From a virus, in the IMG/VR virus record IMGVR_UViG_3300026488_000015, positions 64,001-128,000 of that record: a stretch of 64,000 nt of DNA. One strand, written 5' to 3'. Position 1 is the first letter of the stretch; each line of letters begins with the position of its first letter. Under the pieces are notes generated by a model. That model ran no database searches. It was not told the DNA's origin and saw only the letters and a program-made list of their open reading frames with translations. Shown one piece after another: positions 33,166-55,720 of the stretch. The position numbers and the translations under genes were made by a program.

Positions 33166-35046
33166 TTTCTTTCCTTCTTATTTTGTATATGTAGTATTAT
33201 AACATAGTATTACTTAAAGCCTTCTTAAATTCGCTCACCCAAAAAGAAAGGGAGTTCATCCAACGGGTATGCGTTTGTGTCATTTTGGTATCTGTCTTTT
33301 AGTACTGTAAATGAATCTTTATCAACATAAACTGCCGCATCAGCCTCAAAAAGTGTTTTCATATTTTTGGGTATAATATCACCATCTTTAATGTTTACAT
33401 CTTTTGTTCTGTATATGATAATCATTCTTATCCTTTGATTTGTACCAGAATAACATCTGTAATCGGTACAGTAATCTGCATATACCAATTACTAAGCGTT
33501 ACTTCATCTTCTTTAACTGAAATTACTTTATAGTTTTCGTGTGTTTTTAGGAATGGATGGAATCCATTATATTGTACTGTGTCATCTTTTTCCATTCTAT
33601 TGTCTCTCAACTTTATAATCTTTTGCTTTGTCATAAAACAGAGCAATAGCATTCAATTCTCTAACGCTGTATTCATCAATCTCGATGAGTTTAGATTTAC
33701 CTGATTTGTGTGTGATTTTAAATTGTGTAAACATTATATATCTCCATTTCTAGCTTCTTCAGCTCTGTAACCACGAATGTCTGCTCTACGAAGGTTCTCT
33801 TTAACCTGAGCAACTCCGATGTCTCTAGCACTCTCTAAAGCACTCTCTGTGCTCATCTGACAATCATCATTCCAAGAACCGTTATTAAAACTTCGTACTG
33901 ATAATTCGATTTCTGTGATTTCTGTTTGAGTTAATTCTTTCATTTCTTATCCTTTATATGCAATATTATAACATAAGTAACCTTAAAGCTAGTTGAAGTT
34001 AATCTCTGTATTTGAAACTTTTTTCTTCGTTGGTTTTACTGAATCTAAAAATTTCATATTTCTTGTCTTCTCTAATATAGTTTCTATCATTTTATCGGCA
34101 TAATCAGTAGCATTTATGTTTAGAGTAGCTGTATATTGTTTATCGCTCTCAGTAGCACCATTGTAGAAACTCGAATAAGCATTTGACCATATGACCATAT
34201 AATCAGATTTTGTCATATCCATTATTTCTCCAATTTCAGCTCAATAACATTACCTGCTTTAGGCATTATCTGCATGTTTGCACCATCTAAAGAAATAGTA
34301 ACCGTACCATTCTTTGTGAAGTGAACTAGCATTTCCACATCGTTACCTAAGTCCATAAAGACTCTCTTTTCTTTTGGTAAATTGATTTCCATCTTATCTT
34401 TCCTTATCTTTCTTTATATGTAATATTATAACATAAAAGACCTTACAGCCACCTTAAAATGTTGTAACTGTTGGTATCTCATTAGAATCTTTTCTTAATT
34501 CTACTTCGTTGCATAGTTCATCAACATCTATACCACTAAAAAACTTGATGAATCGTTTGATTAACGAATCCATCTTATAGTCCTTCTACTTCTACGATTT
34601 GTTCTAAAATATATTCAGGAATCTCATTGATATTAGATGTCATTTCAACACCATTTCGTTCAATCTCTGCTGCTAATTTATTGTAAAAATTACTGATACC
34701 CAAAGTACTATCACCTTGACCTCTAACGATGTTCTCTAATGAGTTTAAAATTGATTCTTTCATTTCTTATCCTTTGTCTCTTTATATGTAATATTATAAC
34801 ATAACGAACCTTAAAGGCTACTTAATATTTATTTTCCATTTCGGTTGTTACTTTAATATGGTCACTACAATCTCTTACCCACATAGTGGTCCTTGTACCC
34901 GTATCGATTTGGCATTCTTCAAGACCATTTTCGATTGCTCTTTGTGTTGTTTTGTAATCTGCGTAAATTGCTGCTATACCTGCTATACTTAGTAATATTG
35001 CTACTACTACTGATATGATTGTTTCATTTTTATTCATTATATATCC

Positions 35047-35280
35047 TTATAGTAAATAGTGAGGTTTATCTGCTAAGATTCTCTTTATGAATGTCTTAGC
35101 GTCTTTTTGAGGATAGCCTAATAGTATCATCAAGTCAAGACTCGAATCTTCTATCAGCTGTAAGCATTTGTCTGCTGCTTCCTGTTTTGTAGGACTGTAT
35201 TGTGCATCCCAGTTTTCCATAGCAACTTCAAACCACCAGTATTCTTGGTCTTCGTTTGGTTGTAATAATTTGAAATACAT
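35047..35280 (-). CDS. Hypothetical protein, C-terminal PHYLL tag
   Basis: Start revised to MYFKLL at 35280, coupled to the upstream stop. Confidence 0.5.
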   Translation of the reverse strand: MYFKLLQPNEDQEYWWFEVAMENWDAQYSPTKQEAADKCLQLIEDSSLDLMILLGYPQKDAKTFIKRILADKPHYLL

Positions 35281-35841
35281 TATTTTCCGGCCATAGCACC
35301 AGAAACGAGTGAAATGAATCCAACAAAGCCTACACCAATCCAAATCTTGAACGCCGTCCAAGCAGCAAGACCGACGGCCATATCATTTGCACCCCAATTA
35401 TAGAGAAATGTACCTACACCAATGATGTTAGCAAAAACCAATAAAACAATACCGAAAATAAATAATAACGGCATCTGTTATCCTTTCGCTATCGTTACGC
35501 ATACAGCAACAACAAAAGTCATTATTAAGCCGATGTAAAAAATTGTACCATTTGTGCTAAGAGAGTCCCATTTAAAACCTTGTAAATCTATCATATTATT
35601 TCCTTTAATTAAATAACGAACCGAGACCGTAAATTAATACTGTCACGGTTGAAATGATTACTGCTAGAGCAATCGACACTTTGATTATAATACCAGTAAT
35701 AAAACCATTAGCTACATCTGCACCAGTTTCTAAACCAGCTTTAAGCCCATCTTTGGCTAACTCTTTAACATCTACATCTTTTACTGAATCAACAGCAATA
35801 TCTTTCATTTTCTTAAACATTCATTTCCTTTTTAACTGAAT

Positions 35842-36069
35842 CTAACTAAACCTAACTAAACCAACTAAGTTGATTAAACTGAATACTACATTCATTATAA
35901 GCAACTGTCTATTATCATTATTATAAGCATAAATTGACCATAATATAGAACTCGTGATGAATAATGTATAGCACAACATAAACAAGTCTAAATTTAACGC
36001 CATTAACATTGCTGCTGTAACACCCGTTGTAGTTGCTGAATTTGTAATAAATGTTTCTGATATTCTCAT
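35842..36069 (-). CDS. Small three-helix membrane protein
   Basis: Hydrophobic helices; early promoter upstream. Confidence 0.55.
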   Translation of the reverse strand: MRISETFITNSATTTGVTAAMLMALNLDLFMLCYTLFITSSILWSIYAYNNDNRQLLIMNVVFSLINLVGLVRFS

Positions 36070-36245
36070 AATCTTTCCTTCTTCTCTTTATATACAGTAT
36101 TATAACATAACATAGCTTAAAGGCTACTTAAATTTGGAGAAATAAAAAGAATTTTGAAATTCTTTTAGTAGAACTTGGTTTTTACTAAAGTTTTACCTCT
36201 AACTTTTATAGATACTACTAAGATACAAAACAAACAAGTATCTAA

Positions 36246-36282
36246 CCTCAAGGAAGAGGATGTTTTACACAACGGAGGTGTA
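36246..36282 (+). promoter_or_regulatory. Putative CsrA-binding 5' leader: two hairpins with ANGGA loops, the second covering the RBS
   Basis: CCTC-AAGGAA-GAGG (36246-36259) and TACAC-AACGGAG-GTGTA (36266-36282), directly before the flagellin ATG. Confidence 0.65.
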
Positions 36283-36284
36283 TT

Positions 36285-37109
36285 ATGGGATTTACAATCA
36301 ACACAAACAATAGCGCAAACTTCGCACTATTATATGGTAGACAAACACAACAAAAAATAGATAGTTCTTTAGAAAAACTATCAACTGGTCTTAGAATTAA
36401 CAGAGCAGCAGATGATGCAGCAGGAATGGCTATTGCTAATCAGTTAAGAAGCCAATCACAAGGTTTAATTCAAGGTAACAAAAATGCACAAGATGCTATT
36501 GGTCTTGTTAAAATAGCAGATGGCGCAATGGATGAGTATCAAAAAATTCTCGTGACTGCTAGAGATAAATCAGTTCAGGCAGCAAGTGATACGAATTCAC
36601 CTGAAGCAAGAGCAGTACTCGAAGAGGAAGTTAAGCAATTACTTCAACAAGCAGATGATATTGCCACTACGACATCATTCAATGGTATTAATCTTTTAGA
36701 TGGTACATTTACTAGCAAGAAATTTCAAGTAGGTTCAGAATCTGGCCAAACTATTAGTATGAGTATAGCTAATACTGATATTGCTTCTCAAAATATTGCT
36801 GACGCTGATATTGATTTAACTACTCAAGCAGGTGCTGATGCAGCAATCGTTTCATTGGATGCAGCGATAAAAAGTATTGATGCCGTTAGAAGTGGAATAG
36901 GTTCGACTCAAAATGCACTAGAAAGTAGAGTCCGTGTTAATGAGGCAACTGCCGCAAATGTTATGGCCGCAGAGAGCGCGATTCGTGAAGTTGATTATGC
37001 TGCAGAACAAACAGCATTAAATACAAACACAATCAAGTTACAAGCTAATACATTCGCTTTAGGTAAAGCATTAGAGAACCAACAAATGATTCTTAGTCTG
37101 CTTAGATAG
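36285..37109 (+). CDS. Flagellin (short; D0/D1 only)
   Basis: MGFTINTN, SLEKLSTGLRINRAADDAAGMAIA, NAQDAIGLVKIADGAMDE, TSFNGINLLDG, FQVG, RSGIGSTQN.LE, AESAIREVDYAAE, ILSLLR. Confidence 0.95.
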   Translation: MGFTINTNNSANFALLYGRQTQQKIDSSLEKLSTGLRINRAADDAAGMAIANQLRSQSQGLIQGNKNAQDAIGLVKIADGAMDEYQKILVTARDKSVQAASDTNSPEARAVLEEEVKQLLQQADDIATTTSFNGINLLDGTFTSKKFQVGSESGQTISMSIANTDIASQNIADADIDLTTQAGADAAIVSLDAAIKSIDAVRSGIGSTQNALESRVRVNEATAANVMAAESAIREVDYAAEQTALNTNTIKLQANTFALGKALENQQMILSLLR

Positions 37110-37461
37110 GGTTTAGGAAAACATCAACTATGATGATAACCAATCCATAATAGTGTAGAGACTCTTCTTTGGTCTCTGCAATATTACCTTTACCAATAAA
37201 CAATCCAATATCATTTAAAATATCAAATAGACCTAGACCTTCAGGTTTAGTATAATCAATCATATCAGACATCAAACGAATACTTTCAAGCATCTTAGAT
37301 GTAGTTTCAAATTTAATTTTTTGTTGGGATAATGCTGGTTCTTTTTTCTTTTTTTCTGTTTCTATCTTTATAAGTACAAGAGTTTTTTTCTTTAATAAAG
37401 TATAAAATGTTTTTAAGAATTCTTCTTTACCTAAGACAGCATTTTGTTCGTAAGGGTTCAT
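37102..37461 (-). CDS. Putative FliS-like flagellin export chaperone (divergent)
   Basis: 119 aa helical protein; N-terminal PYEQNAV like the FliS AYxQN motif; IRLMSDMIDY..EG..L, GN, VIIIV pattern aligns with the FliS helices; convergent with flagellin. Confidence 0.5.
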   Translation of the reverse strand: MNPYEQNAVLGKEEFLKTFYTLLKKKTLVLIKIETEKKKKEPALSQQKIKFETTSKMLESIRLMSDMIDYTKPEGLGLFDILNDIGLFIGKGNIAETKEESLHYYGLVIIIVDVFLNPI

Positions 37462-37485
37462 AATCTTTCCTTCTTTTTTGTATGG

Positions 37486-37725
37486 TTACCAAGTAAGATG
37501 AGTGCCGTTGCAGTTCCCGCACATTTTTACGGATGGTGCGTACACTCTATCACATTTAGGACAAAGCCAACCCCTATCTAATTGAGTTCTATCTTGAGGT
37601 ATCTTTAGTCCATAACCACCAACACCAAAACCAGTATCGATGATAGTGCTGTATTCAACATCACTAACACCATCTATCTCTTTAATTTCTTCTATTTTCT
37701 TATCGTTTGCGTTGTTCCAGAACAT
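37486..37725 (-). CDS. Small Zn-finger protein
   Basis: GWLCPKCDRVYAP...CGNC. Confidence 0.55.
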   Translation of the reverse strand: MFWNNANDKKIEEIKEIDGVSDVEYSTIIDTGFGVGGYGLKIPQDRTQLDRGWLCPKCDRVYAPSVKMCGNCNGTHLTW

Positions 37726-37739
37726 TTTGTTTCCTTAAA

Positions 37740-38663
37740 TTATATTGATATTCTCATTTCGTGACGGTTTGGACCAGTAGTATAAATTAATGTACCTGCA
37801 CCAATTTTTGACATTCTACTGATAAGTACTTTATTGGCATCTTCAGCTTGTCTGTGACCACTATCGATTGCCCAAACCTCAGTATCGAATGAAGAAAGAA
37901 TTCTACTTGCTTCTTCTAAATCATTACCTTTCTGCGTAAATACGATGTAAGCACCGTTAGCTCCTAATGCAATATAATCCGATTCAGTCTTTTCTGTTTT
38001 CTTAATCTTTTCCATAGCTTCGTACTTAGCTTTGTTTTCTTTTTTGAGTCTGTCATCTATAGCATCTTGATAGTCTTTCTCTAAACGAGCGTACTCTTTT
38101 TTCGTAGTAGGTTTGTTGAATAGCTCATCAGAAGTCGTATTACAAGTTTTTGTAGAGAATGCATTAACGGCACTAACAAATCTTTTCTTATTCTTTAAGT
38201 CTCTTGCTATCTTCTCTGAAGTCTTCTTATCGAGTTTAACTTTATCACCATTAACGAGAACTTGTACAACTTTACCTTGAAGCATAATAGGTTTTATATG
38301 TACTTGTGGTTCATCGTTACGACTAGGCCAAAATGCAGAACTAACTTTTACTGGAACTTCCAATACAACATCCACAATGTCCTCAGTAGAATTAATAATG
38401 GTGCTTATACCTACGGTCACTAAATCAGTATTGATAACCTCTATCGTTTGTCTACGAATAATATTTAAGTTATCCAGGTTATTATATGTAAATCTAGCAT
38501 CATCGATGTCTTTAGCGCCCAAGGCCTCGATTCCTCTAATTGCTACTTCTCTTTGTTCTTTTGTTGTAAGTGTTTTTGTACTTACTAAGCTCTTAAATGT
38601 TCTCATTGCGTCTCCTGGTTTACTATTATTTATATCTCTTAGAGATAAATTCGTTAATATCAC
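37740..38663 (-). CDS. Hypothetical protein
   Basis: Long ORF in the operon; no motif recognised. Confidence 0.55.
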   Translation of the reverse strand: MILTNLSLRDINNSKPGDAMRTFKSLVSTKTLTTKEQREVAIRGIEALGAKDIDDARFTYNNLDNLNIIRRQTIEVINTDLVTVGISTIINSTEDIVDVVLEVPVKVSSAFWPSRNDEPQVHIKPIMLQGKVVQVLVNGDKVKLDKKTSEKIARDLKNKKRFVSAVNAFSTKTCNTTSDELFNKPTTKKEYARLEKDYQDAIDDRLKKENKAKYEAMEKIKKTEKTESDYIALGANGAYIVFTQKGNDLEEASRILSSFDTEVWAIDSGHRQAEDANKVLISRMSKIGAGTLIYTTGPNRHEMRISI

Positions 38664-39381
38664 TAAAACAAATCTGAACCTTAGGTCCTTTTTCTAGCTG
38701 TACTGTTTCAATATCTGCAATAACATCACCATTGACACCGTCAATCCAACAAGTAACGCTCTGTCTTGATTCTACCGAAACTTCAGTAAATCTTGGTTTG
38801 ATAACAGTACTAAGATGCATATTTGTTTTATCTCCCGTAACAACCCATTGCTTTGAGTCGATAGGTATCACAACACCTTGATTATTTACACTAATTCCTG
38901 TTGAACCTTGTGGTGTACTGATAATTATTCCACCACCCTTAAACGATTCAGGAAGAACCTTAGATTTAACAGAAAAATCTATCCAATCCATCATAGTACC
39001 ACCGATAGCAACTTCATTGAATGCATAGTATGATTTAGTTGCCAGATGATGGTTTCGTTTTACTGTTGCTTTAATAGTTCGCAGTGTCTTAGTATTAAAA
39101 AATTCTCTCTCGCATACATCTACAATAAAATTGTATGGTTCTATATCATTCATAAGAAAGCCTAGTGTCCCAGCATTGATGCCATAGATAGGTAAATCGA
39201 AATCGATGTAAGTCTTTACTGTTTTGAGTAAAGTCCCGTCTCCACCAGCACAGACAATCATTTCTGCTTCGTTAGGTGTATCAACGAGAAATCTTTGAAT
39301 ATTCTCATTTTTCTCAAATAAATCGTTCCATTCTTGTGTTTTTTTGTTATGTGCTTCATATTTTACGAAGAATATTTTCAT
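38626..39381 (-). CDS. nadK: NAD kinase
   Basis: GGDGTLL, GINAGTLGFL, AFNEV, ISTPQGSTG, IDG. Confidence 0.9.
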   Translation of the reverse strand: MKIFFVKYEAHNKKTQEWNDLFEKNENIQRFLVDTPNEAEMIVCAGGDGTLLKTVKTYIDFDLPIYGINAGTLGFLMNDIEPYNFIVDVCEREFFNTKTLRTIKATVKRNHHLATKSYYAFNEVAIGGTMMDWIDFSVKSKVLPESFKGGGIIISTPQGSTGISVNNQGVVIPIDSKQWVVTGDKTNMHLSTVIKPRFTEVSVESRQSVTCWIDGVNGDVIADIETVQLEKGPKVQICFSDINEFISKRYK

Positions 39382-40126: not shown

Positions 40127-41158
40127 TTATAGCCCTACCATTTTTTCGATTTCAAGTCTGATTCTCTCTAGTGAAAGAATAGTTTCAGAAAGTTCCTCTA
40201 CGCTCATTGTAACAGTTGGTGCTCTTTTGACCATTTTGTTGTCGTTTCTTTGAAATTCAAGTGCAGTTTCAACTGCTTCAGATACACCAGGTAGTGTAAG
40301 TACAAGTTGTAGTTCTGTGATTCTCTTTGAATCGTTTTGTACTCTCTCACGAACAGCTTGAAGTGATTTCTTATCTGCTGTGAATCCTCTACCAACGAAT
40401 CTCATAAATCTAAATGCTCTAAGAGGGTCTTCTTCAAGACGGTCTTTTGGTTTACCAACAAATCTAAGTGTTTTTGTCTTGATGTCATCTATGAAACATT
40501 CAGTAGGGTCGATAATCAGTTCAGATGTAAGATTAAAGAAACCAGCACCGATAGTGAAATCTCTACGATTACCATCTTCTTCAATAGTACCTGCTTCTCC
40601 ACCCGCATTATCCTTATCTTTCCTAAAATTAGCAATCTCGAAATCTTGGTTGTTCTTAGAAGCAATAAGTACAAGAAATTGTTTACCTACATTGTTTACT
40701 TTAAACCCATTTTCTTTGAAAGTTTTTTCTAGTGTATCCATATCTGTGTCCGTACAAAAATCAAAATCGTTTGGTACTTTATTGATAAGAAAATCTCTTA
40801 CAGCACCACCAACAAGACAAGCTTCAGTAGAAAGACCTTTAAGAATCTCTGCTACTTCTTCTGCTTGAGCAAAATGACCATTAAATTCTTCTGAAATAAC
40901 AGCACTCATACCGATATTTTCATCAACCATTTCGCACATTGTATCTGATAGAGGTGTAAATGTATCTGGAAAATCACCAAACATAAACTCTGAAATATCG
41001 TGTAGAATATAAAACATTTGTGTATCATAATCATCAGCAAGTGATAGATTTACTTCAACTTCCCATTTCTCAGGAGGGTTTGATAGTTTAATCAAATCTG
41101 TATCTTGGAAGTTTCTAAAGAACATTTCGTTGAATTTCTTTGTTAGTTTGTTTCTCAT
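40127..41158 (-). CDS. tRNA nucleotidyltransferase (CCA-adding / poly(A) polymerase family), compact
   Basis: LVGGAVRD, DFDFCT, EIANFRKD, RRDFTI, EDPLRAFRFMRF, ERIRLE. Confidence 0.9.
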   Translation of the reverse strand: MRNKLTKKFNEMFFRNFQDTDLIKLSNPPEKWEVEVNLSLADDYDTQMFYILHDISEFMFGDFPDTFTPLSDTMCEMVDENIGMSAVISEEFNGHFAQAEEVAEILKGLSTEACLVGGAVRDFLINKVPNDFDFCTDTDMDTLEKTFKENGFKVNNVGKQFLVLIASKNNQDFEIANFRKDKDNAGGEAGTIEEDGNRRDFTIGAGFFNLTSELIIDPTECFIDDIKTKTLRFVGKPKDRLEEDPLRAFRFMRFVGRGFTADKKSLQAVRERVQNDSKRITELQLVLTLPGVSEAVETALEFQRNDNKMVKRAPTVTMSVEELSETILSLERIRLEIEKMVGL

Positions 41159-51550: not shown

Positions 51551-54500
51551 ATGATAACTAGAAGTTTTAACAAAATTGATTTAGATTTAGCAGTAGTAGA
51601 AGCAGAGATTGCTGGTGTTGTAATCTCAACAAACAAAATTACATCGGTGCAGAGTAATTCAACTCTTACTTTGGAAGGTAATGGTACTGGAAAAATAACA
51701 CTCAACGATGATACAAAAGTAAACGGGAGCCTGAGCACTTCTAAGGATGTCGTATTCCATAGTGACTTTGCTTTAATAGCTGATGATTCTTCTGGAGAAT
51801 TTTCTAATAGAAGTGGTACAAACATAGACCATATTTGGCACAATGATACTACCAATTCTTGGAATTTTGTTTCTGATGGTACTTATAGAAAAGATGGAAT
51901 TTCAGGTTCAAGTACTTTAAGAGCTCAACACTTAGCTCTTGGTTCACATCTTACTGTAAATGGAAATACAGTTCTTGGTAATGCTAATACCGATTCAACA
52001 ACGGCTAGAGGTACAGTAACATTATCTGATGCAGGAAAATTGACTAATATCAAGGGAACATTAAATGTGGACCAAGCAGTTTCTTTCGATTCAACATTAA
52101 ATGTTGCTAGTACCACGACTTTAAATTCAACTCTTACTGTAAATGGTAGCACGACTTTAAAATCAAATCTTACTGTAAATGGGAATACAGTTCTTGGTAA
52201 TGCTAATACAGATACTTCAGTAATTCGTGGAACTCTTACATTATCTGATTTAGACAAACTTACTACTATCAAAGGTTCTTTAAGAATTAATCAAGACCTT
52301 GTTATCGATAAAGCACTAAATGTTACGAACGATTTAGTTGTTGGTGATTTCAATGATTCAAACTCTAATATTACAGTTCTAGCTGGGGAAACGAAAATAG
52401 CACAAATATCTGCATACGGGTCTAGTCAAGGTACTGGAATTGTATATGTAGGACAAAGCAGTTCTCACGGTGGTGGTATCGTTTATAATGGCGATGACAA
52501 CCCTAATTTACCTTTCAGTACTGATAGTATATCAATGTTTAGAAGAAGTTCAGGTGTAGATTACGAGATTATACACGCAAGTCACGGTTCAAGTCGAGTT
52601 TTATTCAATGATAGCATTACTATTGAAGGTACATCTGATTCATCAAGCACTATTACTGGTTCATTCCAGACTAAAGGTGGTGTAGGAATTGCTAAGAAGT
52701 TATATGTTGGTACTTCTGTTTATGCACCGACTTATTACGATTTAAACAATACTGGATATTATGGTAACTTTGCTAGTACAAGTAGAATGAATTTACTAAA
52801 TCTTACGACTCTTAATGTTTATGGTATTACTACTCTTGGTGATGCAGTTACTGATTCGACTAGAATTCGTGGTACTGTTACTATAAGTGATAATACGAAA
52901 TTAACTAAGATTGAAGGTAAACTTACAGTCGATGAAGCAACTATTTTAAGTTCTACTCTTAATGTTAATGGTAATACTACTCTTGGTAATGCAGTTACTG
53001 ATTCAACGACTATTCGTGGTACTGTTACTATCGGTGATGATACGAAAAATACTAGAATTGGTGGTACACTTTCAGTTGATGAAACTGCTACATTCTCTGG
53101 TATCATAAATGCTAACGCTGGAATCAAACAAGATAATTTCTCTATTCTTAATGGTTCTGATACTTGGTTAAGAACTTCTGGGAATACTGGTTGGTATTCT
53201 GCCACTCACGGTGGTGGTATGTATATGACTGATACTACCTGGGTTCAGACTTATGCAGATAAAGGTCTATCAGGTAGAGTACTAAGAAGTACTGTTGCAC
53301 AAGGAACAGCACCTCTTGTTGTTACTAGTACGACTAAAGTTGCCAAACTAAATGTCGATTATCTTGATGGTCAAGATATTTCATATTATAGAAATGCTAC
53401 AAACTTGAATGCAGGTACAATATCTGATGCAAGATTACCAAATATTATCACTTCTGATATAAAAGGTATCAAGTATGTGGATAGTAGTAATGAAATGACA
53501 TTAGCACAAGGCTTCGTTGGTGGTAGATTGTACTTAAATTATAGAGGAGCAACTTCTGCTATTACAGAATTATACATAGCTAATGGTCGTGGTGCTACTA
53601 CAACTAATGTTATAGCAAGACAATACACATCTAATGTTGCACAAGGAACAGCACCTCTTATTGTTGCTAGTTCAACTAAAGTAACGAACTTGAATGCTGA
53701 TTATCTTGATGGTCAGACTTTGACATCTGCAGGGACAGCAAATACAGTTGTCGGTCGTGATGGTTCGGGCGATATAAATGCTAGATTATTCAAGAGTACT
53801 TACGGTACAACATCATCATTAGCAGCAACTGCAGATATTTGTTTCAGAAATAGCACTTCAGATAATTATTTAAGATTCGTAGACCACGCAGGAATAATTT
53901 CTTGGATTGGTAAAGTAAACGATTCACAAAAACTTGATAATCTCGATTCTACACAATTTTTAAGAAGCGATACAGCAGATACATACACTTCATTAAGTGG
54001 GGGTAGACTCACAGCAACTGGTACGGGTAACAACTATACTAATGGTGGAATAGAAGTGCGTTCATCGGGTAGTGCTATACCAACAATCGGTTTTCATAAA
54101 CCAGGTGCTTTCGCTGGAGAACTACAACTAAGAGCTAACAACGAATTTTACTTCCGTAATAATGGCGATACTGGAAATGCAAATGTAACTGCAGAGGTGT
54201 TTAGAGGTAAAGCAACAAGTGCTAACTACGCCGATGTCGCAGAAAATTATCTTTCTGATTCAGTACAAGTTCCAGGTACTGTAATGGGTATAGGAGGAGA
54301 AAACGAGATTGCAGTATGGACTGAAGGAATGCCTCTAGCAGGTGTTGTAAGTACTAATCCAGCTCTTATTATGAATAACGAAGATTCTATTAAGGATAAT
54401 GAATTGTATCTTGAAATAGCACTTAAAGGAAAGATTCCTTGTTTCATAGAAGGAGAAGCTAAGAAAGGACAATATTTAGTCCCTTCAAGTAATGGTAAAG

Positions 54501-54589
54501 CAAAAGTTTCTACTACATACAATCCAGAATTTAATATAGGTGTATGCATAGAAGATTCCGTAAACGGGACTGTAATGGTTAAAGTCTAA
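51551..54589 (+). CDS. Tail fibre / receptor-binding protein with C-terminal intramolecular chaperone-like (peptidase G2-type) domain
   Basis: G/T/S/N-rich beta repeats (LTVNGNTVLGNANTD, VAQGTAPL..S.TKV..LN.DYLDG), C-terminal YADVAENY...GVVSTNPA...ALKGKIPC; TATAAATA at 51517-51524. Confidence 0.8.
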   Translation: MITRSFNKIDLDLAVVEAEIAGVVISTNKITSVQSNSTLTLEGNGTGKITLNDDTKVNGSLSTSKDVVFHSDFALIADDSSGEFSNRSGTNIDHIWHNDTTNSWNFVSDGTYRKDGISGSSTLRAQHLALGSHLTVNGNTVLGNANTDSTTARGTVTLSDAGKLTNIKGTLNVDQAVSFDSTLNVASTTTLNSTLTVNGSTTLKSNLTVNGNTVLGNANTDTSVIRGTLTLSDLDKLTTIKGSLRINQDLVIDKALNVTNDLVVGDFNDSNSNITVLAGETKIAQISAYGSSQGTGIVYVGQSSSHGGGIVYNGDDNPNLPFSTDSISMFRRSSGVDYEIIHASHGSSRVLFNDSITIEGTSDSSSTITGSFQTKGGVGIAKKLYVGTSVYAPTYYDLNNTGYYGNFASTSRMNLLNLTTLNVYGITTLGDAVTDSTRIRGTVTISDNTKLTKIEGKLTVDEATILSSTLNVNGNTTLGNAVTDSTTIRGTVTIGDDTKNTRIGGTLSVDETATFSGIINANAGIKQDNFSILNGSDTWLRTSGNTGWYSATHGGGMYMTDTTWVQTYADKGLSGRVLRSTVAQGTAPLVVTSTTKVAKLNVDYLDGQDISYYRNATNLNAGTISDARLPNIITSDIKGIKYVDSSNEMTLAQGFVGGRLYLNYRGATSAITELYIANGRGATTTNVIARQYTSNVAQGTAPLIVASSTKVTNLNADYLDGQTLTSAGTANTVVGRDGSGDINARLFKSTYGTTSSLAATADICFRNSTSDNYLRFVDHAGIISWIGKVNDSQKLDNLDSTQFLRSDTADTYTSLSGGRLTATGTGNNYTNGGIEVRSSGSAIPTIGFHKPGAFAGELQLRANNEFYFRNNGDTGNANVTAEVFRGKATSANYADVAENYLSDSVQVPGTVMGIGGENEIAVWTEGMPLAGVVSTNPALIMNNEDSIKDNELYLEIALKGKIPCFIEGEAKKGQYLVPSSNGKAKVSTTYNPEFNIGVCIEDSVNGTVMVKV

Positions 54590-55611
54590 GTAAGAAAACT
54601 TAGCACTACTTTATTCATAAACTCTCTATCTGATTTCTCAGGTAGAGTAGTCCTCAACATAAGTTCATCAACTCTATCTAAAGTATCTCGTACTTCATCA
54701 AGAGCATCATCTACATCGACACGGCCTTCTTTGACATCTTTCAATCTCTCTGCTTTTGTGAGAGGAAATTTAAGAAAGTTGGTGGTAAGAAGTTCTTCAA
54801 CCTCTACAGCTACTCTAAGAGCGTGAGATAAAGCTTTAAAGTCTGTTTTTGATTCAGTCTTAGCAACAGTTTTTGTTCTGTTACCAAAACCTTCATATAA
54901 TTTCTTAACTCTCTCAAGCATATACAAGAAAGTAACATTTCCTTCGTACATTTTACCAAGGACAGAAAAATACTCACATTCAGTATGTTCACCAAGACCA
55001 CGAGAGTTAGGTGCCATAACGAACTTAACATATTTGTATCCTCTTGTAATAACTTTCAAATCATCAAATCTATCACTAAGTTTTGTATCAGGTGAACCTT
55101 GTGCCCAGCCATCTAGTGCTTTTACAAGTTTATCTAGCTCTGCATATCTATCACCTTTGACACCGAATTTCTTCGTTTGTCCGACAGCATATCCAACAAA
55201 TTTCTTCATATTTCTATTTTGGAATTTTGTGTGATTATCTTTCATTACTTTAGTAAATTCAGGTACTTCGTAAACGACTGTATCCTTTCTAAACATAGAG
55301 TAAAGTAAATCTACTGCACCCGTTTCAGAACCTTCGAGTAAATCCATAAATTTGTATGGAGAATATCCATCTAAATCTACATCATCAGCACCATTCTTTT
55401 CTTTAGTGTCTTTACCAACTTTAAGAAATTCTACATCTTTTTTCAATAGAACATCTTCTTTACTTGGAGCGAACAAAAATTTATAATCAGTATCAGAATT
55501 AACATTATCTGTACCGTATAATTTTGAACCACTAAGAGTCACATATAGAACCCTAACATTGTGTTTTTCTTCTAGTCCTCTGAGGACCTCTTTTAGTTTT
55601 TCGTTTGTCAT
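54586..55611 (-). CDS. Pol-beta superfamily nucleotidyltransferase (T4 NrdC.11-like)
   Basis: GSKLYGTDNVNSDTDYK (GS..DxD), FVGYA, DFKALSHALR, LP...D; start likely MTNEK at 55611. Confidence 0.85.
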   Translation of the reverse strand: MTNEKLKEVLRGLEEKHNVRVLYVTLSGSKLYGTDNVNSDTDYKFLFAPSKEDVLLKKDVEFLKVGKDTKEKNGADDVDLDGYSPYKFMDLLEGSETGAVDLLYSMFRKDTVVYEVPEFTKVMKDNHTKFQNRNMKKFVGYAVGQTKKFGVKGDRYAELDKLVKALDGWAQGSPDTKLSDRFDDLKVITRGYKYVKFVMAPNSRGLGEHTECEYFSVLGKMYEGNVTFLYMLERVKKLYEGFGNRTKTVAKTESKTDFKALSHALRVAVEVEELLTTNFLKFPLTKAERLKDVKEGRVDVDDALDEVRDTLDRVDELMLRTTLPEKSDREFMNKVVLSFLT

Positions 55612-55720
55612 TTTATGACCTTTATTTTGATTTTCCACCAATCAATTTACGGTATTAATAACCGAATAAAGTATCTCTCTTTATATGTAATATTATAACA
55701 TAAGTAACCTTAAAACCTTC

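Follow-up and report, generated by a model that had tools for sequence, protein, structure and literature searches.

In Enterobacter, the tldR-fliC^P system of the temperate phage FRphi supplies a flagellin, FliC^P, that replaces the host flagellin after TldR has repressed the host gene; the paper on FRphi calls it the first prophage-encoded flagellin, and the words "FliS" and "chaperone" occur nowhere in its text (PMC13418256). To date, the only phage flagellin demonstrated to function is that of a temperate gut phage, in which an RNA-guided repressor silences the host gene. Here, we describe a flagellin gene and a convergent gene for a FliS-like chaperone candidate, located at positions 36246-37461 of a 64,000-nucleotide (nt) stretch of virus DNA (positions 64,001 to 128,000 of the IMG/VR record IMGVR_UViG_3300026488_000015), to be called the window. 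As in FRphi, where the phage flagellin enters the host filament and alters the behaviour of the host (PMC13418256), the phage carries its own flagellin. FRphi, however, is a siphovirus of Enterobacteriaceae in which RNA-guided TldR silences the host fliC, whereas the present carrier is, by its gene content, a T4-type myovirus from a hydrothermal vent. Neither a tyrosine integrase domain nor a TnpB/TldR-type domain (PF07282) was found in the 146.5-kb record (68% complete), and its flagellin is Campylobacterota-derived, follows a host-type CsrA leader and is accompanied by a private FliS-like protein. Full-text literature searches returned no description of a flagellin carried by a T4-type phage or by any phage of Campylobacterota. 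With respect to known phage-encoded flagellin, the novelty is the private, diverged FliS-like chaperone, the retained CsrA-type leader of the host and the virulent-type, T4-like carrier.

Our interpretation is that the phage flagellin is exported via the flagellar secretion system of the host and sustains or rebuilds the filament during infection. We put the probability of this reading at roughly 0.55; we infer that the chaperone binds, that the subunit is exported and built into the filament, and that the phage benefits. The locus extends phage flagellin to virulent-type environmental phages, in which the translational checkpoint of the host appears to be kept and an export chaperone of the phage's own to be added; in sister phages, the flagellin cassette additionally has genes for length-control or junction proteins. 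T4-like cyanophages keep a host-derived psbA gene, presumably sustaining the host function after shut-off, and some psbA copies hold a group I intron. The likeness is that of a virulent T4-type phage with a highly used host protein, and copies of the flagellin gene in sister phages likewise hold a group I intron; the difference is that flagellin has to be secreted and then assembled extracellularly and, therefore, needs a chaperone and the export machine of the host. If export takes place, lytic phages would be maintaining motility during infection, in addition to photosynthesis and nutrient uptake.

The virus record is linear, 146,525 bp long and 68% complete according to CheckV; its DNA has a GC content of about 33%, and the minus strand holds nearly all the genes. 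We identify the carrier as a T4-type (T4-like) myovirus because of the PHROG matches in the record, which include tail sheath, a gp15-like sheath stabiliser, the large terminase and two RNA ligases. The hosts of this phage lineage are probably vent Campylobacterota of a Sulfurimonas-like kind. A near-identity DNA search with 15 kb against the GenBank phages gave no match, and a protein search of the same phages yielded only distant flagellins, all in unannotated records. The exact flagellin sequence (database entry P0001) is listed on a contig of 331,651 bp, as compared to the 146.5 kb of the present record, so the complete phage may be much larger.

The first-pass annotation of the window had reported an intact flagellin of 274 amino acids (aa) on the minority plus strand, overlapping at its 3' end with an open reading frame (ORF) of 119 aa that starts with MNPYEQNAV (Table 1). 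Both ORFs are intact, and their 3' ends do overlap, tail-to-tail, by 8 nt (37102-37109). Flagellin_N (PF00669) matches residues 5-143 over the full model (1-139 of 139) with an E-value of 3.1e-42 and 144.4 bits (cut-off, 26.6), and Flagellin_C (PF00700) matches residues 191-273 (1.5e-14; 54.5 bits, with a cut-off of 23). The gap between the two domains is 47 residues, so the D2/D3 region is absent. The same annotation had remarked on this absence, which stands, although not as a peculiarity of the phage: the nearest cellular full-length relatives, flagellins encoded on Sulfurimonas chromosomes, are themselves 269-279 aa long. A GGAGG ribosome site lies 7 nt upstream of the start codon. A possible assembly chimera had also been raised; a 6.4-kb Logan contig, made by an independent assembler from the only vent metagenome run in which the sequence is present, covers positions 34775-38800 with no differences and even depth, is continuous across the locus and gives no sign of a chimera, although this run may be the source sample.

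Where this flagellin came from is indicated by its relatives. In the protein database, more than 50 clusters of 274-aa flagellins from metagenomes are 63-85% identical to the phage flagellin, several of them on contigs of 55-165 kb, and another group of 267-269 aa is 50-62% identical to it. The closest cellular full-length proteins are the chromosomal flagellins of Sulfurimonas mentioned above (L010-L012 in our set of loci), with 42-44% identity. They share with the phage protein the MGF(R/T)INTN start, the restriction to D0/D1, a promoter -35 region of the same type and the first of the two leader hairpins described below; the phage copies are set apart in a clade of their own with good support. 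Indeed, in a maximum likelihood tree of 100 flagellins, the phage-type sequences constitute one clade (Shimodaira-Hasegawa-like approximate likelihood ratio test, SH-aLRT, 99), taking in both the T4-like group and the 269-aa group and nested within a Campylobacterota clade (SH-aLRT 100); a phage contig was confirmed individually for some of the rows in the phage-type clade. The flagellin phylogeny that the first-pass annotation had proposed as a check thus places one phage clade within the flagellins of Campylobacterota. The L010 flagellin gene of Sulfurimonas adjoins two large ORFs that, by eye, resemble flagellin-modification (Maf-type) genes.

Among five gap-free flagellin genes of 274 codons, the pairwise ratio of nonsynonymous to synonymous divergence (dN/dS) is 0.16-0.29, with dS near saturation. 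Judged from these comparisons, these phages have long carried the flagellin gene, and purifying selection maintains it over its full length. At the C-terminus, the D0 sequence is divergent from that of the Sulfurimonas flagellins. This divergence would suit an alternative that goes back to the superinfection exclusion and anti-readsorption ideas of the first-pass annotation: by capping, poisoning or re-surfacing the filament, the phage subunit would keep flagellotropic competitors, or the progeny of the phage itself, from adsorbing. For the temperate FRphi, remodelling has been suggested to influence how susceptible cells are to secondary infection by phages (PMC13418256). We regard such a defence by alteration of the filament as unlikely: the flagellins of the likely hosts are equally short and, therefore, no obvious change of the surface would result, no feature of the protein suggests a polymerisation defect, and the record is without a repressor of the host flagellin such as TldR. 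Poisoning or capping, which had been put forward beside replacement of the host subunit, is not favoured by the present results over a simple supply of subunits.

The 119-aa product of the convergent gene had been read as similar to FliS, the flagellin export chaperone. It shares with bacterial FliS (PF02561; 3IQC of Helicobacter pylori, 5MAW and 6GOW of Bacillus subtilis, 1ORY and 1ORJ of Aquifex, and 6CH3 with FlhA) the size of about 120 aa, the four-helix bundle, the N-terminal cap, an N-terminal Tyr-x-x-Asn, the position of its gene beside flagellin and the top profile and structural matches. The differences are that the phage proteins, some 10-17% identical to FliS, are beyond the reach of PF02561 and form a family of their own, and that their binding to flagellin and FlhA is predicted only. 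The 119-aa protein has no Pfam match at E-values up to 0.1 and no PHROG match, and its sister protein at locus L001 is likewise without a PF02561 match. Because the curated PF02561 model fails, we call the protein "FliS-like" and not a member of that family.

An exhaustive HMMER search detected 31 representative relatives of the 119-aa protein (100-145 aa), 28 of which, including the syntenic L001 protein, were aligned in what is termed alignment A1. Searched against 177,635 PDB sequences, the A1 profile had H. pylori FliS (3iqc) as its best match, with an E-value of 0.004 and colinear over helices 2-4; against 5,797 ORFs from the loci, all that it found beyond its own family was genuine FliS (Helicobacter FliS, E 2e-5). 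Comparison of A1 with five Campylobacterota FliS by hhalign gave an E-value of 2e-4 and a probability of 46%, while the reverse search of the locus ORFs with a five-sequence FliS profile did not find the phage family. An aromatic residue near the N-terminus is kept in each of the 26 family members whose N-terminus is present. In the present protein, Tyr4 and Asn7 (Y-E-Q-N) have the spacing of Y10 and N13 in FliS, where Y10 and N13/V13 dock on FlhA (PMC11536152); an equivalent of Y7 is absent. Back-translated patterns for the 119-aa protein retrieved nothing from IMG/VR, and the A1 alignment was too variable for deriving patterns. In another database entry (P0130, 382 aa), five separate stretches match the middle of the FliS-like family, resembling a tandem array.

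The AlphaFold2 model built on the A1 alignment is a four-helix bundle (helices 12-36, 44-66, 73-93 and 98-116) with a short N-terminal helix (3-6) as a cap segment, and has a mean predicted local distance difference test (pLDDT) value of 90 and a predicted template modelling (pTM) score of 0.81. Foldseek, proposed earlier as a check, places FliS chains at ranks 1-3 (template modelling score about 0.7), with weak E-values of 0.07 or worse, which are common for helical bundles; designed helical bundles rank just below. VIA-align, which works independently of Foldseek, likewise ranks FliS chains 1-3 among 48,161 representative chains: 5xef with Z 13.6, 3iqc with Z 13.2 (root-mean-square deviation 1.9 Å) and 1orj with Z 11.9. 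A search of the ESM Atlas by structure, using the Atlas's own low-confidence model, returned generic helical bundles only, and no usable match by feature. A complex of the protein with residues 200-274 of the flagellin, also suggested previously, was predicted with a score of 0.43 (best control, 0.00), the runs sharing at least 63% of the contacts and the pLDDT of the partner being at least 77. The mark applied to such predictions is reached by 58 of 80 solved complexes and by two of 110 mismatched pairs; seven of the 80 solved complexes and both of the passing mismatches reached it at 0.60 or under. The prediction weakly supports binding, and its pass may reflect only likeness to FliS-flagellin complexes that are already solved.

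A further regularity concerns gene order. Going outward from the flagellin, the FliS-like gene adjoins it in the present record (G000) and at L001, L099, L103, L105, L005, L095, L130 and L131, counted among the relatives with enough flanking DNA, in every one of which the FliS-like gene is the 3' edge of the flagellin cassette. Going from four FliS-like representatives, all four contigs hold a convergent flagellin of the phage clade. Among the loci examined, the FliS-like family (about 31 representative clusters) occurs in phage-type contexts only. This pairing bears on the alternative that the 119-aa ORF is an unrelated helical phage protein, its likeness to FliS a generic effect of four-helix bundles, with the flagellin using the FliS of the host. 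The missing Pfam FliS match, the modest hhalign probability, the Foldseek E-values with designed bundles close below and the generic bundles from the ESM Atlas all speak for it. We nevertheless hold it to be quite improbable, given that FliS comes first in the PDB profile search, in the profile search of the locus ORFs and with two structure aligners, that the pairing with flagellin is strict in all relatives, also when starting from the ORF itself, and that the N-terminal Tyr is conserved. The earlier identification as FliS-like is, accordingly, supported, with the correction that this is not a plain FliS: as far as profiles, models and pairing tell, the 119-aa protein is a distant homologue of FliS in a diverged family of its own and may bind flagellin. 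If it does serve export, a natural, highly diverged FliS family would be at hand for studying the minimal needs of a chaperone at the FlhA export gate.

The sister loci differ in what accompanies the pair. In the window, as well as at L001 and L103, the flagellin stands alone with the convergent chaperone gene. At L099, a T4-like contig with gp23, FlaG is found between flagellin and chaperone, and at L105, the flagellin is followed by a 259-aa FlgL-like ORF, a 353-aa FlgK and then the chaperone; L101 has the same arrangement but ends before the chaperone position. All three FlgK domains (Flg_bb_rod, FlgK_D1 and Flg_bbr_C) score over their cut-offs, while the 259-aa FlgL-like ORF is without a Pfam match. 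In a second group, on very large contigs (L005, 496 kb; L095; L130; L131), the flagellin is followed by a co-directional FliS-like ORF of 90-105 aa and by FlaG, with a CheY-type receiver nearby. FlaG antagonises FliS-flagellin at FlhA (PMC11536152). The 146.5-kb record itself has no domain matches to FlaG, FlgK/rod, FliD, FliW, CsrA or CheY/receiver.

The window's two genes had been judged not to be a captured operon. It is true that no further flagellar genes occur in the window, but relatives place FlaG, or FlgK with the FlgL-like ORF, between the two genes, and the leader is of host type; for these reasons, the pair is best described, from comparison of the loci, as the smallest version of a late-flagellar cassette that was captured and varies in content. 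FlaG, FlgK and the FlgL-like protein make sense only for export and assembly, and their presence in the sister cassettes supports export of the phage flagellin. The same genes, together with the Tyr predicted to dock on FlhA, tie the module to the flagellar export apparatus and argue against a non-flagellar structural use, in which flagellin would form a polymer inside the cell or on the virion (e.g., a fibre) and the helical protein would be its assembly chaperone. That use would fit the minority strand, which flagellin shares with a fibre-like gene (Table 1), the only other plausible plus-strand gene among the ORFs of at least 200 aa. The host-type CsrA leader also speaks against it, we know of no flagellin that assembles without the flagellar export apparatus, and we consider it very improbable indeed.

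Several observations on the sister loci may be added. The FlgL-like/FlgK block lies at L105:6722-8576 and L101:3606-5468, and the contigs that carry FlgK have phage-type flanks, namely, a collagen-repeat protein, a DNA methylase and a PD-(D/E)XK nuclease. In the second group, L005, L095 and L097 (contigs of 84-496 kb, one of them in GCA_029935755.1) have a flagellin of 267-269 aa with a short co-directional FliS-like ORF; L005 and L095 additionally have FlaG and, nearby, the CheY-type receiver and a PolyA_pol/CCA enzyme. Two further small ORFs, one of 117 aa after the L003 flagellin and one of 104 aa in L142, are, judged by the comparisons made, neither FliS-like nor FlaG-like. In two sister phages, the flagellin gene is split after codon 44, within the conserved RINRAADD|AAG, by an insert of 1.2 kb (L105:4802-6000 and L003:4798-6000). 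Within the insert is an endonuclease-like ORF of 290 aa; the last base of exon 1 is T and that of the insert is G. The Rfam model Intron_gpI matches L105:5646-5951 with 66.6 bits (gathering score, 50; E 2.3e-16), which classes the insert as a group I intron.

Upstream of the flagellin, the leader resembles that of Campylobacter jejuni flaA, in which two hairpins with ANGGA loops are mapped CsrA sites, the second over the ribosome site, codon 2 is GGA and the leader titrates CsrA (PMC4894983). Position 36246 is the first base of the first of two hairpins in the window (SL1 and SL2; Table 1), whereas the coding sequence begins at 36285. The SL2 loop carries the GGA of the Shine-Dalgarno sequence, and a third GGA is codon 2 of the flagellin. 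In an alignment of 11 phage and Sulfurimonas flagellin leaders, 95% of the cells in the SL1 stem pair and all four base pairs show compensatory changes, with a covariation score of 1.11 (0.20 for shuffled alignments; at most 0.24 for slid registers). The loop motif served to choose the windows for this alignment, so that the covariation of the stem alone counts as evidence. Hairpins that enclose the ribosome site occur in the folds of most related leaders, and L005 has textbook double AAGGA hairpins ahead of its flagellin. By layout and covariation, the phage leader is, thus, of the host flaA/CsrA type, and CsrA is predicted to bind it. It differs from the C. jejuni leader (PMC4894983) in standing on a phage gene, with a -10 box that is not canonical for sigma-28, in a phage whose record encodes neither CsrA nor FliW.

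A cytoplasmic decoy or regulator is an alternative account. On it, the leader soaks up CsrA and the flagellin, solubilised by the FliS-like protein, soaks up FliW or the FliS of the host and never enters a filament, with the effect that CsrA-controlled translation is rewired or the export of host flagellin is blocked. Both CsrA-type hairpins are retained, the flaA leader of C. jejuni sets a precedent in titrating CsrA (PMC4894983), the same genome appears to use mimicry in a second flagellum-directed protein (see below), and the chaperone gene lies among early-type genes on the other strand. We think this account unlikely. Purifying selection acts on the whole D0/D1 protein, beyond the leader or the C-terminus; FlgK, the FlgL-like gene and FlaG in relatives point to assembly and export; and a decoy has no need of a private chaperone with a conserved Tyr predicted to dock on FlhA. 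Conservation over the full length and the sister cassettes weigh, likewise, against the non-flagellar structural use and against the generic four-helix bundle.

A candidate promoter precedes the leader (Table 1). Its TTTACTAAAGTT, within the 215-bp upstream region, is over 12 nt identical to the -35 region of the sigma-28 promoters of Sulfurimonas flagellin genes, while the phage -10, TAGATAC, follows after 16 nt, 3 nt further than the host CCGATnT (13 nt). The composite -35/-10 pattern, defined after viewing the sequence, occurs once in the window, at the candidate promoter. Because CTAAAGTT alone is present at chance frequency in the window (six sites; 5.5 expected), the -35 match draws its meaning only from where it lies and from being identical to the host promoters. 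Canonical sigma-28 boxes (CCGATAT / GCCGATAA) are found at the flagellin genes of sister loci L005 and L097. The T4 late-promoter sequence TATAAATA has 15 sites (12.3 expected) and none upstream of the flagellin, where TATAGATA, with one mismatch, is present. Scans for generic sigma-70 promoters and terminators gave nothing beyond chance near the locus.

Table 1. Positions of the features discussed (numbering of the window)
Feature	Position	Strand	Basis or details
Phage flagellin, D0/D1 only, 274 aa	36285-37109	+	PF00669 and PF00700 matches; phage clade; dN/dS
FliS-like four-helix chaperone candidate, 119 aa, starts MNPYEQNAV	37102-37461	-	Family profile; AlphaFold2 model; structural ranks; pairing
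Leader hairpin SL1, stem CCUC/GAGG, loop AAGGAA; candidate CsrA site 35 nt ahead of the start codon	36246-36259	+	Minimum-energy fold; covariation
Leader hairpin SL2, stem UACAC/GUGUA, loop AACGGAG	36266-36282	+	Minimum-energy fold; C. jejuni flaA layout
Candidate flagellin promoter	36181-36215	+	TTTACTAAAGTT at 36181-36192, 16 nt, TAGATAC at 36209-36215
Direct repeat CTTAAA-N5-CTTAAA	36116-36132
Divergent 75-aa gene	35842-36069	-
Terminator-like hairpin with T-run	36307-36333	-
NAD kinase-like gene	38626-39381	-
CCA-adding/PolyA_pol-type nucleotidyltransferase gene	40127-41158	-
Fibre-like gene	51551-54589	+
Nucleotidyltransferase gene	54586-55641	-

Two further elements close to the flagellin start were noted. 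The repeat CTTAAA-N5-CTTAAA, found upstream of the flagellin in many relatives, was considered as a flagellin promoter element and rejected: it is part of a divergent, minus-strand early-type promoter (TGTTATAAT). There are 12 such sites in the record; on the minus strand, the repeat precedes extended -10 boxes of the TGTTATAAT type. The copy in front of the flagellin serves the divergent 75-aa gene and looks like a phage early-type promoter. The minus-strand terminator-like hairpin lies within the first flagellin codons and could stop antisense read-through from the block of genes to which the FliS-like gene belongs; a single such site was seen, which equals the chance expectation for the region scanned.

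The proposed course of events starts with the host-type leader, whose two GGA hairpins, the second over the ribosome site, would put translation of the phage flagellin under the CsrA-FliW checkpoint of the host, a gate that would open once the flagellar type III apparatus secretes filament subunits. The FliS-like protein would then bind the C-terminal D0/D1 helices of the phage flagellin, hold the monomer and dock on the host FlhA through its N-terminal Tyr-x-x-Asn. Once exported, the phage subunit would join the host filament, sustaining or rebuilding it as host gene expression shuts down, and, together with the mimic described below, it would let the phage keep and steer the swimming of the infected cell.

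A number of points weigh against export and incorporation of the phage flagellin. Completeness of the record is only 68%, and the host assignment is indirect. PF02561 has no match at E-values up to 10 in the whole 146.5-kb record; high structural scores come easily to four-helix bundles, and a Z of 13 is borderline by the limit given for such bundles. The -10 box deviates from that of the host in both sequence and spacing, which makes the coupling to the flagellar regulon of the host uncertain. The chaperone gene belongs to an early-type block on the other strand, and the two genes may, therefore, differ in their time of expression; the lytic cycle of a T4-type phage, moreover, may leave too little time for growth of the filament to be of consequence. 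Among the public runs searched for the stretch, it was present in one DNA run and in no RNA run.

A second gene of the same record appears to be directed at the flagellum. A protein beginning MASILSQSEIDALL, encoded at about 135240 of the record (minus strand) and 7.2 kb past the end of the window, has the FliM N-terminal docking motif for phosphorylated CheY (CheY-P). This FliM-N mimic suggests that the phage interferes with steering too.

Taking the sister loci into account, we tentatively entertain a broader reading, at clearly less than even odds: a whole lineage of phages that infect vent Campylobacterota, comprising virulent T4-type and very large ones, would carry a portable late-flagellar export kit with which they commandeer the building and steering of the flagellum. 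Its constant part would be the flagellin with a private FliS-like chaperone and its variable part FlaG, or FlgK with the FlgL-like protein; in the present phage, a FliM-N mimic disarming CheY-P would be added. The FliS-like proteins would then be a new, phage-specific family of chaperones able to use the FlhA gate of the host. If this is true, the virocell keeps swimming as the phage dictates, in steep chemical gradients. Vent sulfur-oxidisers rely on taxis in redox gradients, and swimming under the control of a phage could shape where infected cells lyse.

Next to the flagellin gene are small ORFs and the genes for a Zn-ribbon protein and an NAD kinase. The genes flanking the locus, all on the minus strand, include those for the NAD kinase-like protein and two nucleotidyltransferases, one of them of the CCA-adding/PolyA_pol type (Table 1). 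Sister cassettes adjoin genes for NAMPT, NMNAT-like and PolyA_pol proteins, and the neighbourhood is, therefore, syntenic across the phage groups.

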